Counted from the stretch's first letter, positions 1,345 to 5,812 are shown. The stretch is DNA of 64,000 nt from a bacterium (GCA_023267535.1 JAHFNC010000003.1:380-64379), one strand, 5' to 3'. The notes: generated by a model from the sequence alone, not told the origin. A program made the numbers and translations.

Positions 1345-1710
1345 TTTTTTACAAAATTAAATTGAAAACAACACATCTGCCTCGTCTGCCAAATGCAGAC
1401 GGTGATAGGCATGTTTCCTAATAGGAATTCGGGTACTTAGTATGTCTCGGCTTAACACATTGCTATGCTTACACCTAACACCTATCAACGTAATAATCTC
1501 TTACGACCCTTCAACGAATACTAATCTTGAAGTTGGCTTCATTCTTAGATGCTTTCAGAATTTATCCATTCCCGACATAGCTACTGGGCGGTCCAGCTGG
1601 CGCTAGAGCCCACACACCAGAGGTCAGTTCACTCCGGTCCTCTCGTACTAGGAGCAAATCTTCTCAATATTCGAACGCCCGCAGAAGATAGGAAACCAAC
1701 CTGTCTCACG

Positions 1711-2027
1711 CATTGCTGTTTTACATCACTCCTTGGTTTCCAACCTGAGTGAACCTCTATTGCTAGAGGGATCGGACTATAGCATTCACTTATTTTTTAC
1801 TTAAGTGTATCAACGTTTAGTCTCTACGGGCTCTTTTATTTTCATAAATGATTCCCTCGGAATTATCCAATATGGACTTTCCCGATATTAGTCGATTTGT
1901 CTTCACATATCACTATGTGAAGCCGCCGTGATTGATGTCTTTTTGTTAAGTTTAGTCTTAACTCCTCGGGCTCAAACTAAGAGAAGTCAAAGTTACAAAA
2001 TATTTTCATATTATTCTGTAACCTTCA
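1711..2027 (-). other. group I intron in 23S domain V/VI (near E. coli position ~2590), no ORF
   Basis: It interrupts the contiguous conserved sequence GGGTT(T/C)A(G/A)AACGT|CGTGAGACAG. The 5' exon ends in U and the intron ends in G. R-like (AGAGACTAAACG, plus 1813-1823) and S-like (GCTATAGTCCGA, plus 1772-1783) core elements are present in the correct 5'-to-3' order. Confidence 0.6.
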
Positions 2028-2881
2028 CTCCTCTACGGTTTGAACCCAGCTCACGTATCTTTTTAAATGGCGAACAGCCATACCCTTGGTAGCTTCTCCA
2101 CCACCAGGATAAGATGAGCCGACATCGAGGTGCCGAACTGTGCCGTCGATATGAACTCTTAGGCACAACTAGCCTGTTATCCCCAGGGTAGCTTCTATCC
2201 GTTAATCTGCTCCTGCATCTAATGCAAAGAGTAGGTTCACTAGGACCCACTTTCGTGTCTGCTTGACATGTCCGTCTCACAGTCAAGCCAGCTTGTGCCC
2301 TTACACTATCGGCACGGTTTCCATTCGCGCCTAGCTGACCTTAATGTACTCCTCCGTTACTTTTTGGGAGGAAACCGCCCCAGTTAAACTCCCCGTCAGA
2401 TACTGTCTACGAACGTTTTTTCCGTTCATGTTAGCAAATGCCCCATTACAGATGGCTATTTCATTGTCGAGTAGATTACAGCCGAAACCATAAACATCAA
2501 ACCTCTCGCCACTATACTACGCAGTAAAGAAACATTTGCAATACCAAACTAGAGTAAAGCTCCTGGGGTCTTTTCGTCTATCTGCGGGTAACCGGCATCT
2601 TCACCGGTACTGTATTTTCACCGAGCTACTCCCAGAGACAGTTCCCCAGTCGTTACACCTTTCGTGCACGTCTGAACTTACCAGACAAGGAATTTCGCTA
2701 CCTTAGGACCGTTATAGTTACGGCCGACATTGACGGGGGCTTATATCATCCAGCGCCGAAGCACCGCCGATATTTAACCTTCCCGCATTGGTCAGGTGTC
2801 ACCTCCTATACATCCACTTACGTGTTCGCAGGAAGCTGTGTTTTTGGTAAACAGTCGCTAGGGAAACTTTCGCTGCGGCCT

Positions 2882-3178
2882 CCATCACTTTATTTTCAAA
2901 GCAATGAAATCCATAGAGAATCATTTCCACCACACTGTATTTAATTACTTAAATACATTTTTTGTCCATACATTAGCTCTAATATATGGACTATTTGTCT
3001 CATTTTATTTTCAAATTCTCTAGGACCCTCACTTCACTTTCATAAATGAAGAAAAATGCTTTAGTAACGAGGAGCATAGAATTTTTCTAGGGAAAATGTA
3101 GATGAACTACATTGACCGACGAAAAATTCGTAGCGACAAAGTTAATGAAGTAATTTTGTTTATTTTGAACGCAAAGTG
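2882..3178 (-). other. AT-rich ~300-nt insertion in a variable 23S helix (E. coli ~1715-1745 region) that carries a copy of the dispersed 3'-element
   Basis: Conserved 23S sequence resumes on both sides, with only about 35 nt at this position in E. coli. The internal segment 3093-3165 matches the dispersed-element consensus. Confidence 0.5.
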
Positions 3179-3787
3179 ATGGAGGCAGATCTTATTGCTA
3201 ACTTACGATCGCTTTTTTGCCTAGTTCCTTTGGGAGATATCACTCGTTCGCCTTAGTCTACTCGACTTGAATACCTGTGTCGGTTTGCGGTACGGATTAA
3301 TAGAAATTTAAAGCATCTTCATATACCTAGATGATCTTTGCTTGCGCAAAGTAAAAGGCATATGAAGACGTTCTGTATTCACAGAATGTAGAGACTTTTC
3401 TCGGAGGCGTGCTTTATAAAGTTGAATCAGGTTGCCCATCATCTTCATGCGACACTTGGAATATTCTCGTACGGATTTGCCTATACAAGTTCCTCATGTA
3501 ACAAACGACAATCCAATAAGTCGCTTTATATACTACACCCCGTCATCCCATCACATTTCTACCAAGTTAAGGAATATTAACCTTATGTCCATCGGGTCCG
3601 GCGTTTGCCATCCCCTTAGGCCCGACTAACCCTTCGCTGAAAACCATTGCAAAGGAAACCTTATTCTTTCGGCGTGGGGGTATCTCACCCCCATTGCGGT
3701 TACTTGTGCCAACATTCGTACTTCCACACGCTCCACGGTGGGTTACCCCTTCCGCTTCAACGCAGAGTGGAACACTCTCCTACCGCT

Positions 3788-4171
3788 TGTGAACTTCATA
3801 GAGGAGGTGTATGGTCCTCGTAGTATAGGAATCCGCTCGCTTGTGTACAAAAATAGCGGATATGTCTTCGTTTAGGTTTGTCAGATTTGGAATCCAACAA
3901 TCTCACGCGATGACAGTGACCGGCTCGTTGCTCTAAGCATCGTCCTATATCGCCACAATTAAGTGGCCTACTAACACACACCTGTTGAAACAAGTTAAGA
4001 CGACCAAGCGTCTAAGTTCGCGCATGATATAACTCCGATTAGCGTTATGCCCTCCCCAAGGGACGGCAATACGACACACAGAATCAGTGATCCGCACTTA
4101 TTTTAGCTTTATCGCTTTTACTTGATTCGAGGTCGCATCTTATATTGATGCAATCCTCTATGAAGTTCACA
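3788..4171 (-). other. helix-45-type intervening sequence (about 350 nt) closed by an 18-bp perfect inverted repeat
   Basis: tgtgaacttcatagagga (3788-3805) is the exact reverse complement of 4154-4171. The flanks align to E. coli ~1160 (CCGAAGCTGCGG) and ~1190 (GGTAGGGGAGCG). Confidence 0.6.
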
Positions 4172-5812
4172 AACCCTCAGTTTCGGTGGTAGATTTGAGT
4201 CCCGATTATTTGTGGCGCAGAGTCTCTCGATGGGTGAGCTGTTACGCTTTCTTTCAATGATGGCTGCTTCTAAGCCAACATCCTCATTGTCAATGAAACT
4301 CCACCTCCTCGCTTACACTTAATCTACACTTAGGGACCTTAACTTGAGATCTGGGCTTTTTCCCTTTTGACCGACGGAGCTTCGCCCCCGTAGTCTTACT
4401 GCCGCGTTTTTAACTCTTGGTATTCGGAGTTTGATAGGTCATGCCGTATTTCTACTAGTCAAGACCTTCCAGTGCTCTACCCCCAAGAGGAACACACGAC
4501 GCTAGTCCAAAAACTATTTCGGAGAGAACCAGCTATTACCAGATTCGATTAGCTTTTCACTCCTTACCACAAGTCATCCAAAGGAGTCGTACAACCTAAT
4601 GGTTCGGGCCTCCATTTACCTTTCGGTAAACTTCACCCTGCTCATGGTAAGCTCATCTGGCTTCGGGTCCATAAGTAACGACAATAATTTCGCGCTATTA
4701 ACACTCGCTTTCGCTTTGGCTCCGTGACTTTATACCACTTAGCCTGCCGTTACCTATGACTCGTTGGCTCATTCTTCAATAGGCACGCAGTCGAGGTGTA
4801 AACACCTCTTCTACTCCTTGTAAATATACGGTTTCAGTTCTATTTCACTCCCCTTCCGGGGTTCTTTTCACCTTTCCCTCACGGTACTAGTTCACTATCG
4901 GACTCTTTAGATATTTAGCCTTGCCGGTTAGTTCCGGCTAATTCATCCGAGCTATTCGTGTCTCGAACTACTCAGGATAAGACATAAAAGAGAGATAAAT
5001 ATTTCGATTACAAGACTATCACTTTCTTTGGTGTTGCTTTCCAACAACTTAATCTATATTTACCTTTTGTAACTCTTCTAGAAATCTACATGTCTTCCCT
5101 ATAACCCCTCACACCAACTTTGCTTTCCAGTATTTTTACTGAACTTCAAAGTTGGTGTGAGGTTTGGGCTGCTCCGCTTTCGCTCGCCGCTACTTACGGA
5201 ATAACTATTGTTTTATTTTCCTCCGGCTACTGAGATGTTTCACTTCGCCGGGTGCGCATCTTGGGATTGCTCCCTAAGATCATACAACATTACTTGTATG
5301 AGGTTTCCCCATTCAGAGATCTCCGGATCGAAGGTTGTTAGGCACCTCCCCGAAGCGTATCGTCGCCTGACCACGTCTTTCATCGCTCTAAAGAACCAAG
5401 GCATCCACCGTATACTCTTAATTTTCCTATTAGGAAACATAACTATCACTTGTTATTTCAAACCGCTTCGAAATAACAATGTATTGTTTTCAATTTAATT
5501 TTTAACATCCATATCAAACTGCACAGACCCCAGGTCGTTAAAACTTCCTGGATAACATTTGGCGCAATTCGTATGGGATTCTATTGTCAAACTACATTCA
5601 TTCTGATTTTTACAAAAACAAAATCCGCCTTTGGCGGACCGAGCAAAACTAAAGTTTCGCGCAGACGCCTAGAGTTTTAGTTTTGTAATAGTTTTTATCA
5701 TTCAGTGAGTTTATCTATCCTATCAAAACGGGTAAATAAAGTCAAGAGAAAAAGAGCTTTTAAATTAAGACTTTTCTGTCTCTTAAAAAGGCCAAAAGAA
5801 AGCATAAGAAAA

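Follow-up and report, generated by a model that had tools for sequence, protein, structure and literature searches.

The window, the whole 64,000-nt stretch of bacterial DNA analysed here, carries an unlinked 23S rRNA gene of an ultrasmall bacterium of the candidate phyla radiation (CPR); its transcript, as comparative sequence evidence suggests, probably contains a group I intron spliced from position 2593 (L2593), a helix-45 (H45) cassette cut by RNase III, and a retained helix-63 (H63) arm that harbours a module of mRNA 3' ends. These three kinds of extra RNA, each with a different likely fate, lengthen the primary transcript by about 1 kb relative to an ordinary 23S rRNA. The same undescribed hairpin occurs in the 23S arm and, in many housekeeping genes, just past the stop codon, and this is the notable part of the locus. 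The observation recorded in the initial annotation is confirmed as real, with several corrections; every testable structural claim held and its interpretation is supported.

The 23S rRNA gene and its surroundings

A covariance search with the Rfam model LSU_rRNA_bacteria (RF02541) matched 4014 nt at 1418..5431 with 2233.8 bits over the full model, in agreement with the 23S of about 4 kb initially annotated, for which no strand had been given. The gene lies on the minus strand, as do all features described below unless noted otherwise. Insertions were located by alignment against E. coli rrlB, which placed them at U2593/C2594, H45 and H63; once the intron, the H45 insert and the H63 expansion are subtracted, about 2995 nt of 23S remain. 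None of these three main inserts contains an open reading frame of more than 65 aa or a Pfam domain, consistent with the earlier statement that no homing endonuclease is encoded. Two further expansions, absent from the initial annotation, were observed in domain I (5152..5045, the E. coli ~270-369 region, with about 90 extra nt, the 3' part of which is kept in relatives) and in the H58 region (3382..3309, 74 nt, near E. coli position 1585).

The relatives found for the 23S region are CPR metagenome-assembled genomes, and the host is of the CPR/Patescibacteria, Paceibacteria (Parcubacteria/Nomurabacteria) type. The gene order and the insertion hot spots of the window recur in seven related Paceibacteria genomes. 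On the minus strand a tRNA-like gene and then a 5S gene (1039..1148; RF00001, 57.8 bits) come after the 23S, and no Rfam match to a 16S/SSU rRNA was obtained anywhere in the 64-kb window. The absence of an upstream 16S noted earlier is therefore borne out, and the arrangement, from a gene of the MS-channel family through 23S and tRNA(s) to 5S, is preserved among the seven relatives. Unlinked rRNA genes are already known in Patescibacteria (bioRxiv 10.1101/705046).

The MS-channel-family gene (220 aa, 6531..5869) lies upstream of the 23S 5' end and has its own intrinsic terminator, a hairpin followed by U residues at 5837..5807, which is the protein-gene terminator that had been reported there. 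Since this terminator separates the two genes, the 23S has a promoter region of its own. A promoter-like site is located between terminator and 23S at 5745..5717. The flanks of the 23S (5' strand 5426..5449, 3' strand 1402..1425) pair in RNAcofold as a stem of about 24 bp, of the type normally processed by RNase III. Together, the 23S, tRNA-like and 5S genes would form a single unit transcribed alone, with no link to the 16S gene.

The tRNA-like gene between 23S and 5S (1237..1345), also missing from the initial annotation, matches the Rfam tRNA model at 1298..1244 with 26.6 bits (gathering score 29) and was not called as a tRNA by ARAGORN. It has an insert of about 33 nt in the D-loop region and an anticodon loop of 6 nt. 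Relatives carry tRNAs in the equivalent position, two of them with inserts of 30-50 nt.

Insertions in CPR rRNA genes have been reported (Brown et al., 2015, cited by PMC9297842). A survey of CPR 23S genes found insertions in 82% of them, and its hot spots include both 2593 and H45 (Tsurumaki et al., 2024, PMC11270868). It lists 222 ORF-less group I introns in 23S genes, and the group I-containing insertions cluster at 3' hot spots (23IS6-14); position 2593 is one of the sites that are often occupied and rich in LAGLIDADG. The survey also describes short non-intron, IVS-like inserts at known RNase III intervening sequence (IVS) sites, and 'uncharacterized' inserts without an ORF (PMC11270868). 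The window gene resembles those described there in host group and in a 23S length far above 2.9 kb. Given the 82% figure, the mix of intron, IVS and expansion is typical of CPR, and the view that this combination is itself notable was overstated; what is truly unusual is the reuse of the dispersed element, shared by an rRNA arm and mRNA 3' ends. Neither an H63 insertion nor an RNA module in common with mRNA 3' ends is mentioned in the part of the survey consulted (PMC11270868).

The helix-45 insertion

At 4172..3787 a non-coding insert of 386 nt stands between E. coli positions 1163 and 1186 and replaces H45 (E. coli 1164-1185). An insertion at the H45 IVS site with a perfect closing stem had been annotated correctly, except that the stem has 19 bp rather than 18: its arms, 4172..4154 and 3805..3787, form a 19-bp perfect inverted repeat that extends to about 28 pairs in the minimum free energy (MFE) fold (-152.5 kcal/mol, fold z-score -7.6). 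The insert was found in four of the eight related genomes, and those without it have a plain H45 hairpin of about 25 nt instead. The arms are conserved between genomes with compensatory changes, whereas identity between the interiors falls to 45-52%, compared with 84-93% in the 23S core. Conserved arms around an unconstrained interior are as would be expected of an excised spacer.

From this pattern we infer excision by RNase III and a fragmented 23S; the cassette is most likely cut out and the ends left unjoined, as happens in Coxiella, Salmonella and Leptospira. If so, the 23S would consist of two fragments of about 1.26 kb and 2.05 kb. An RNase III gene (rnc) was not found in the 64-kb window; one was found on a related element-bearing contig (L114).

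The closest parallel is the 23S of Coxiella burnetii, likewise a single gene with an H45 IVS of about 400 nt, a long terminal stem and group I intron(s). RNase III excision of the Coxiella IVS (428-444 nt, 28-bp stem, -143 kcal/mol) has been shown experimentally and leaves fragments of 1.2 kb and 1.7 kb (PMC4990558). The window insert is close to it in size and stability (386 nt, -152 kcal/mol), but it codes for nothing while the Coxiella IVS encodes an S23p ORF. The introns also occupy different sites, Cbu L1951 in Coxiella (PMC1995217 table) and L2593 here. Unlike in Coxiella, the IVS arms recur here at other sites, the H63 expansion and the P6 loop of an intron.

The helix-63 expansion

Helix 63 is replaced by a multi-arm expansion of about 309 nt (3186..2878), closed by a perfect stem of 14-15 bp (GCCUCCAUCACUUUG/...AAAGUGAUGGAGGC). 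Its G+C content is 32% compared with 46% in the 23S core, and its fold z-score is -7.0. The first arm is a copy of an 85-nt structured module in rRNA sense (3062..3146; covariance models R1 106.6 bits and R2 81.3 bits), and the third insertion initially annotated, in a variable helix and with the element in rRNA sense, is confirmed, with its copy at 3146..3062. An Rfam 15 scan of 2850-4220 on both strands at E<=10 gave only chance-level matches for the H45 and H63 inserts.

H63 is expanded in all eight genomes (201-752 nt), and all of them share the closing stem and the 3' arm. The expansion as a whole is 74-78% identical to those of relatives (core 84-93%), and conservation of the closing stem and 3' arm across the eight genomes is 74-97%. 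It is conserved like a retained rRNA segment, and is probably kept as a surface expansion segment when the ribosome matures. In eukaryotes, ES27L is a large flexible RNA arm that extends from H63 on the solvent side of the large subunit. The expansion resembles ES27L as a large arm from H63, with no sequence relationship. CPR 23S rRNAs are generally without H63 (Tsurumaki et al., 2022, PMC9297842), in contrast to the 200-750 nt expansion in eight of eight genomes here, so retention of so large an arm at H63 would be unusual among CPR.

That same general loss of H63 in CPR (PMC9297842) would also fit a different fate. As the closing stem is perfect over its 14-15 bp, the AT-rich expansion could be excised as a second intervening sequence, splitting the 23S into three fragments; the element would then be a shared recognition or processing signal for an endonuclease, or a degradation tag, marking RNA for cutting in rRNA spacers, spliced introns and mRNA 3' ends alike. 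Two observations in relatives point the same way: the element also occurs inside the L2500 introns of two genomes (L013 and L015), RNAs destined for removal, and IVS-type cassettes with H45 arms are nested in the H63 of three (L015, L002 and L004). Such excision is possible but doubtful, because the closing stem and 3' arm are conserved where the H45 interior is not, 14-15 bp is a short stem for RNase III, and the element, interrupted by internal loops, offers no long perfect duplex.

The dispersed 85-nt element

Covariance-model searches identified eight copies of the element in the 64-kb window. Besides the H63 copy, these lie 10 nt past the fusA stop codon (63381..63465) and 8 nt past that of rplX (L24; 54137..54221), both followed by an intrinsic terminator; 8 nt past that of rplE (L5; 52643..52728); 11 nt past that of rplJ (L10; 8949..9032), between rplJ and rplL; and 34 nt past that of a gene for a 904-aa ATPase (20294..20376). 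A weaker copy on the plus strand (20140-20224) is located 25 nt past the efp stop codon, and a weak one (32621..32698) 19 nt past that of a 420-aa gene. The family has at least 120 metagenomic matches, with copies at a median of 15 nt past same-strand stop codons and a base helix that takes in the stop codon. It recurs at orthologous positions in diverse contigs, past khpA, nusG, rplJ and secY. Compensatory changes were seen in 13 of its 21 pairs, unpaired nucleotides are conserved as well, and 90.7% of cells are paired as against 38-52% with the partners slid. No Rfam 15 match was obtained over the element (3062-3146) on either strand at E<=10. The element is a strongly covarying RNA family absent from Rfam.

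Past the stop codons of housekeeping genes the module probably acts as a 3'-end barrier or as a factor-binding hairpin. The REP/BIME sequences of enterobacteria are dispersed hairpins just past stop codons that act as barriers to 3' exonucleases and, when very near the stop codon, can influence translation termination. REPs are about 35 nt long, occur in both orientations and lack copy-specific pairing with coding ends, whereas the element has 85 nt plus an outer helix, is orientation-specific and covaries. To our knowledge, REPs have not been found within rRNA.

The element could instead be a selfish, REP- or MITE-like repeat without a ribosomal role, its H63 copy marking a permissive surface site and being inherited thereafter. 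Eight copies in 64 kb would suit such a repeat, as would the 90% identity of the H63 copy to the fusA copy of the same genome (63386-63461, same orientation), the copies in intron loops, the tandem arrangement of some copies, and the variable occupancy of H63, where an orthologous copy is present in L013, L015, L002, L007 and L004 (six of eight genomes with the window) and no element lies within the H63 of L011 and L005. We consider this origin unlikely, since a same-strand stop precedes 78 of 95 copies and a convergent stop adjoins only 26 of 95, and orthologous positions recur. Covariation is extensive and unpaired nucleotides are conserved; moreover, the outer helix is copy-specific and tuned to each coding end, being its inverted complement and not a direct duplication. 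Neither target-site duplications nor a transposase were seen, and there were zero matches among 2.9 million viral contigs. Orientation bias, the copy-specific flanking helix and orthologous positions thus set the element apart from MITE/REP-like repeats, and a structured module in a retained H63 arm is the reading preferred here.

The group I intron at L2593

An ORF-less intron of 324 nt (2034..1711) is inserted directly after E. coli U2593, with a zero-gap junction between U2593 and C2594 in the rrlB alignment. The group I intron of the initial annotation is upheld by covariation and a P1/P10 guide, although its 5' end is at 2034 and not 2027, a difference of 7 nt; the other details given, namely a 5' exon that ends in U (2035), an intron that ends in G (the omega-G, 1711) and R-like and S-like core strings, are all present. 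The Rfam model Intron_gpI (RF00028) matches 1944..1753 over its full length (1-253) with E=1.6e-11 and 48.8 bits, 1.2 bits below the gathering score of 50. Homologous introns occupy the same site in four relatives (L002, L004, L005 and L007), and three lack it altogether. Across the five introns, including the window's own, RNAalifold found compensatory changes in 44 of 102 consensus pairs and recovered P2, P3, P4, P5, P6, P8, P9, P9.1 and P10.

The internal guide sequence UCACG|GCGG is located at 1931..1923 (intron nt 104-112), so that the P1 and P10 strands adjoin on one segment. In P1, of only 4 bp, guide GCGG pairs with exon CCGU, including a U2593-G109 wobble; in P10, which RNAalifold predicts independently, the 3' exon pairs through its first 5 nt, CGUGA, with guide UCACG. 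Both the guide and the terminal G (...AAUG|CGUGAG) are unchanged in all five introns. The 2593 insert is confirmed as a group I intron, now with covariation and a canonical P1/P10 guide.

An insertion of about 100 nt stands between the splice site and the guide. It includes a long hairpin in the P1 loop (1980..2034, MFE fold) that begins at intron nt +1 and differs in sequence and length between homologues while its pairing is preserved, with compensatory changes between alignment columns 16-37 and 97-118. A conserved segment, GUUUGAGCCC (1968..1977), is complementary to 5'-exon nt 2581-2590 (GGGUUCAAAC), and its sole change, G to A opposite U2584, preserves a standard pair. This segment may form an extra exon-binding helix with the 5' exon; the alternative exon pairing that it allows (1977..1968) leaves U2593 outside any U-G pair.

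The intron most likely removes itself by splicing. The single guide sequence would align both exons, and excision would proceed by G-dependent transesterification, ending at the terminal G and restoring the universally conserved GGGUUCAAACCGU|CGUGAGACAG. The site after U2593 places the intron in the peptidyl-transferase loop region, and as an unspliced ribosome could not work, splicing would be obligatory. That all inserts, the one at 2593 included, are ordinary expansion helices kept in mature rRNA is highly improbable and, for the 2593 insert, effectively refuted: the Rfam scan at gathering threshold reported no intron in the 23S, but the insert interrupts, at a classic intron site, an invariant sequence of the peptidyl-transferase region, has the full group I core, covariation, guide and terminal G described above, and is missing from three relatives.

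Introns at L2593 are also known from cyanobacteria (PMC1995217). The introns of Synechococcus C1 and C9 and of Thermosynechococcus lie at the identical site, after U2593, and are about 745 nt long, with LAGLIDADG endonucleases, P7.1/P7.2 extensions and a short P2 (PMC1995217). By comparison, the window intron, at 324 nt and without an ORF, has no room for P7.1/P7.2, and instead has the long P1-loop insertion and a covarying P2.

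The 23S rRNA locus and its insertions

The importance of this locus rests on two things, a shared RNA module and a multi-site cassette with conserved arms. The initial annotation had described an unlinked 23S rRNA gene bearing a group I intron, a helix-45 (H45) IVS and a third insertion holding a dispersed element, and had considered the combination notable. That description holds and its structural interpretation is supported, but a 23S rRNA gene with intron, IVS and expansion, unlinked from 16S, is a well-documented CPR pattern (PMC9297842; 10.1101/705046; PMC11270868).

Rfam models place a complete bacterial 23S rRNA at 5431..1418 (minus strand, 2233.8 bits) and a 5S rRNA at 1148..1039 (minus strand), with no 16S rRNA in the whole 64-kb window, in keeping with the earlier claim that the gene stands apart from 16S. 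The 5' neighbour is a gene of the MS-channel family (220 aa, 6531..5869), followed by its own hairpin-plus-U terminator (5837..5807) and then a promoter-like site (5745..5717). The flanks of the 23S gene form a processing stem of about 24 bp (5449..5426 with 1425..1402); the rRNA processing steps at this locus are presumed ones. Relatives were collected by scanning one genome per species with the MS-channel-family protein, which gave 15 loci, every one in a CPR MAG with a label such as Paceibacterota, Parcubacteria or Nomurabacteria. Seven of them have a complete 23S directly downstream, then tRNA(s), then 5S, and from these seven relatives the unlinked 23S is therefore taken as a conserved trait of the clade. 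One of the seven, L004, sits on a contig of 775 kb. In Patescibacteria, unlinked rRNA genes have been described before (bioRxiv 10.1101/705046).

ARAGORN found zero tRNAs over the window. The 23S-5S spacer holds a tRNA-like gene (1237-1345, minus strand) with ends CGGGGUG.../...CACCCCG-A, an insert of about 33 nt in the D-loop region and an anticodon loop of only 6 nt; it scores 26.6 bits with the Rfam tRNA model against a gathering score of 29. In the relatives the tRNAs of this spacer are ordinary ones, but two (L004:16308-16410 and L015:7137-7260) carry inserts of 30-50 nt between D-arm and anticodon stem, below group I intron size. Three public assemblies with the exact MS-channel-family gene (L137, ENA ERZ27279942 k141_7985112; L138; L139) stop at or just before the 23S, and the longest public contig with that gene (21.9 kb) ends about 1.65 kb beyond it. 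Public runs that contain the contig are ENA ERZ27279942 and SRR14366796/SRR14366791. The insertion-rich rRNA of this locus is evidently difficult to assemble.

The 23S gene was aligned to E. coli rrlB with MAFFT and then by chained local alignments; the latter corrected the global pairwise MAFFT maps, which misplaced the 3' exons of the relatives. Relative to E. coli (Ec numbering), and all on the minus strand, there are a domain I expansion of about 90 extra nt (5152..5045), a replacement of H45 between Ec 1163 and Ec 1186 (4172..3787, 386-391 nt), an expansion near Ec 1585 in the H58 region (3382..3309, 74 nt), a replacement of H63, Ec 1702-1770 (3186..2878, about 309 nt), and an insertion exactly at the U2593/C2594 junction (2034..1711, 324 nt). 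Without its three large inserts the gene measures 2995 nt at 46% G+C, compared with 37% for the intron, 44% for the H45 insert and 32% for the H63 expansion. No S23p or homing-endonuclease ORF was found in the window's inserts, which bears out the initial annotation as to homing endonucleases. The domain I (5045-5152) and H58-region (3309-3382) expansions, absent from that annotation, are lineage-specific; the domain I hairpin has a 56-nt imperfect palindrome (5107-5162).

Across the window and the seven relatives, an H63 expansion is universal (8/8 genomes, 201-752 nt), and H45 inserts occur in the window and in L007, L013 and L015. The insert after Ec 2593 (L2593) is carried by the window (324 nt), L004 (482 nt), L007 (516 nt), L005 (708 nt) and L002 (792 nt), and a probable intron at L2500 by L011, L013 and L015. 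A further insert at L1931 (about 196-239 nt) is found in all seven relatives and not in the window, where the site would be at about 2700. No genome among the eight carries both an L2500 and an L2593 insert (three have the former, five the latter).

The group I intron at position 2593

The Rfam model Intron_gpI matches 1944..1753 over its full length (48.8 bits, E=1.6e-11), 1.2 bits short of the gathering score; at gathering thresholds group I is reported neither in the window nor in the relatives' L1931, L2500 and L2593 inserts. The last base of the 5' exon is U (2035), the last base of the intron is G (1711), and removal of the intron restores GGGUUCAAACCGU|CGUGAGACAG. As read from the sequence, intron nt 104-112 (UCACG|GCGG) have the layout of a textbook internal guide sequence: GCGG forms P1 with CCGU, the last four bases of the 5' exon, placing U2593 opposite G109, and UCACG, adjoining the P1 strand, forms P10 with the five bases that open the 3' exon.

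The intron appeared unique to the window on the MAFFT maps, an artefact removed when chained alignment and blastn of the intron revealed that four relatives have homologues at this site, with 77-92% identity across conserved blocks. Across the five aligned introns the R/S core strings, the guide and the terminal ...AAUG| never vary, and RNAalifold recovers a P1-loop hairpin, P2, P3, P4, P5, P6, P8, P9, P9.1 and P10, with compensatory changes in 44 of 102 pairs. Length varies among the homologues because the loops of P1, P5, P6 and P8 carry insertions, and the copy in the window is the minimal one. The model match, compensatory pairs, guide and terminal G uphold the earlier proposal that a group I intron splits the gene, and the intron is presumably spliced.

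Two features are odd. The splice site and the guide sequence lie about 100 nt apart with two hairpins between them, and a conserved GUUUGARCCC (1977..1968) mirrors exon nt 2581-2590 in complement. This segment, GUUUGAGCCC in the window (1968-1977, minus strand), complements 10 nt of the 5' exon and is kept, besides the guide, in 5/5 introns; it may provide an additional helix that binds the exon, or else compete as a structure. The 10-bp pairing of exon GGGUUCAAAC with GUUUGAGCCC was rejected as P1 because it would leave U2593 unpaired and a canonical P1/P10 guide exists at nt 104-112.

No Pfam-domain ORF was found in the L2593 intron. Cyanobacterial L2593 introns are about 745 nt long, encode LAGLIDADG enzymes and carry P7.1/P7.2 (PMC1995217), whereas the window's intron has none of these three features. 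According to a CPR survey, position 2593 is a frequently occupied, LAGLIDADG-rich site in CPR 23S genes, and 222 ORF-less group I introns were counted (PMC11270868). The locus contributes a clean alignment with five members for an ORF-less L2593 intron whose guide sequence is defined.

The helix-45 insert and a cassette with conserved arms

In insert-free relatives H45 is a hairpin of about 25 nt, GGGCUUAAUGG...CCAUUGAGCGG. In the window it is replaced by UUGUGAACUUCAUAGAGGA...UCCUCUAUGAAGUUCACAA, a perfect inverted repeat of 19 bp; the initial annotation had correctly recognized an IVS-type insert with a perfect closing stem, there given as 18 bp. The fold of the complete insert has an energy of -152.5 kcal/mol (z = -7.6). 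It matches a classical IVS excised by RNase III, and its probable excision would leave fragments of about 1.26 kb and 2.05 kb after splicing. A close parallel outside CPR is Coxiella, in which RNase III cuts out an H45 IVS of 428-444 nt with a 28-bp stem (-143 kcal/mol), leaving pieces of 1.2 kb and 1.7 kb (PMC4990558). Short non-intron inserts at known IVS sites have been ascribed to RNase III-excised IVSs in the CPR survey (PMC11270868). An RNase III signature is absent from the 64-kb window and present on a related contig (L114).

The inserts of L007, L013 and L015 have arms matching those of the window, and the arm differences are compensatory (C to U with G to A; G to A with C to U). Apart from L013 against L015, the interiors of H45-type cassettes have no detectable similarity, and overall identity is 45-52% against 84-93% for the rRNA core. 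The same arms close sub-insertions in the H63 expansions of L015 (4668-4780), L002 (7887-8258) and L004 (from 14026) and in the P6 loop of the L2593 intron of L002 (9778-10051); another cassette with H45-type arms, inside an H63 expansion or L2593 intron P6 loop, begins at L005:8846. The H45-type cassette may therefore be modular or mobile at the RNA or DNA level rather than a site-bound IVS, and the locus adds evidence that such cassettes with conserved arms occupy several sites. The arms, about 19 nt, read UUGUGRAUUUCAYAGAGRA and its complement, with interiors unrelated between sites.

The helix-63 expansion and a dispersed hairpin

In all eight genomes H63 is replaced by a structure closed by GCC(U/C)CCAUCACUUUG ... 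AAAGUGAUGG(A/G)GGC, with a conserved 3' arm common to all; the window's expansion folds with z = -7.0. Eukaryotes grow ES27L at H63. The window's expansion is 78% identical to that of L013 and 74% to that of L007, between core rRNA and the H45 interior, and its 3' part reaches 88-97%; these levels weakly suggest that it may be retained as an expansion segment. Against retention, H63 is among the helices usually missing in a CPR-wide study (PMC9297842), and the perfect closing stem makes excision possible.

At 3146..3062, as first arm of the expansion, lies a copy of the dispersed element in rRNA sense, as the initial annotation had said of its third insertion. It is 90% identical to 63386-63461 and 73% to 54114-54224, and a covariance model based on this copy and those two found further ones at 9032..8949, 52728..52643 and 20376..20294. 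The element also lies in the H63 expansions of L013, L015, L002, L007 and L004 (5/5 in rRNA sense), in the L2500 introns of L013 and L015, and at non-rRNA sites in L002 and L005. The two L2500 copies (L013:6826-6910 and L015:5875-5959) are identical and lie about 65 nt into inserts of about 600 nt, so the module is also present inside probable introns. Among 16 copies, both-side changes were found in 13 of 21 pairs, and 90.7% of cells are paired against 38-52% in slid controls.

At least 120 stretches of metagenome contigs match a degenerate pattern of the element, compared with 0 matches for the same pattern in 2.9 million viral contigs. The covariance model confirms 87 copies (80 loci) among the matches listed, and a second model rebuilt from these, run with filters off, gives eight copies in the window, including 20140-20224 (plus strand) and 32698..32621. 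No Rfam family matches the 85-nt element, and a limited literature search found nothing on it.

Position of the hairpin at coding ends

All seven non-rRNA copies in the window lie 8-34 nt past a same-strand stop codon. Six are on the minus strand, after fusA (63381-63465), rplX (54137-54221), rplE (52643-52728), rplJ (8949-9032), a 904-aa ATPase gene (20294-20376) and a 420-aa gene (32621-32698, rebuilt model); the seventh follows efp on the plus strand (20140-20224, rebuilt model). Among the matches listed, 78 of 95 non-rRNA copies are 2-59 nt (median 15) past the stop codon of a same-strand ORF, and only 26 of the 95 face the end of a convergent ORF on the other side. The upstream genes, again among the matches listed, are housekeeping ones: KhpA (six copies), NusG (four), L10 (four) and SecY (three), together with RpoC, RpoD, GyrB, SSB, S7, S14, S20, L5, L11, L24, FtsW and PBP.

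For copies among the matches listed, the flanks of the 85-nt core pair with a mean duplex energy of -18.5 kcal/mol against -7.2 when shuffled. The sequence of this outer helix is copy-specific, and among the matches listed helix and stop codon overlap in 65 of 76 copies; in the window's seven non-rRNA copies one strand of it contains the final codons and the stop codon, and the other lies 3' of the core. Core and outer helix together therefore make a hairpin of about 110-130 nt with the coding end in its base.

Possible role of the hairpin

We infer that the element may be a 3'-end barrier or a factor-binding module that doubles as an arm in structured RNAs. The stop-codon placement, the diverse upstream genes and the copy-specific outer helix speak against three readings: a repeat that inserts at random, a leader for the gene that follows, and a single ribosomal-protein operator. 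An autoregulatory mimic of rRNA bound by ribosomal proteins was rejected as a general explanation, the upstream genes being far too diverse. A role as leader or attenuator for the next gene was rejected since copies are anchored 2-25 nt past the upstream stop codon and only 29% have a terminator after them (a terminator-like hairpin within 150 nt past the element in only 22 of 75 copies among the matches listed, against 40 of 300 random positions). Integron attC sites were dismissed, as here the core is conserved, the flanks are variable and the genes are core housekeeping ones.

A tentative and somewhat doubtful proposal is that core and outer helix form an undescribed, widespread Paceibacteria module whose copies on the ribosome surface and at mRNA 3' ends are read by one trans-acting factor or nuclease that couples the two. 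On this view the module belongs to three RNA classes: the ribosome's H63 arm, the loops of group I introns and the 3' ends of housekeeping genes (ribosomal-protein genes, nusG, secY, khpA, rpoC, fusA, efp). In mRNAs its base would sequester the last codons and the stop codon; a single factor or nuclease binding the same module in both places might couple to the ribosome either the protection or processing of mRNA 3' ends or termination and recycling. If there is one such partner, the module would give access to the biology of mRNA 3' ends and to functions of the ribosome surface in unculturable organisms with pared-down RNA-processing machinery. The wider value lies in a strongly covarying hairpin, absent from Rfam, in the lineage-specific H63 expansion, in introns and at the ends of many essential genes.

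The internal loop of the element (GCUACGG/CCUAAGC) resembles the 11-nt GAAA-tetraloop receptor, but many copies have Watson-Crick pairs instead. Tandem pairs of the element follow one stop codon at L084:3392-3607, L059:321-532, L064:673-884 and L021:880-1086 (metagenomic loci). In the window the ribosomal-protein cluster is broken at 52500-54460 (minus strand): an element and a terminator come after rplX, rplE is preceded by a 199-aa ORF of unknown function (54035..53436), and next to rplE, where rpsN-rpsH would be expected, stand a second element and, beyond it, a 493-aa Asn/Ser-rich protein.
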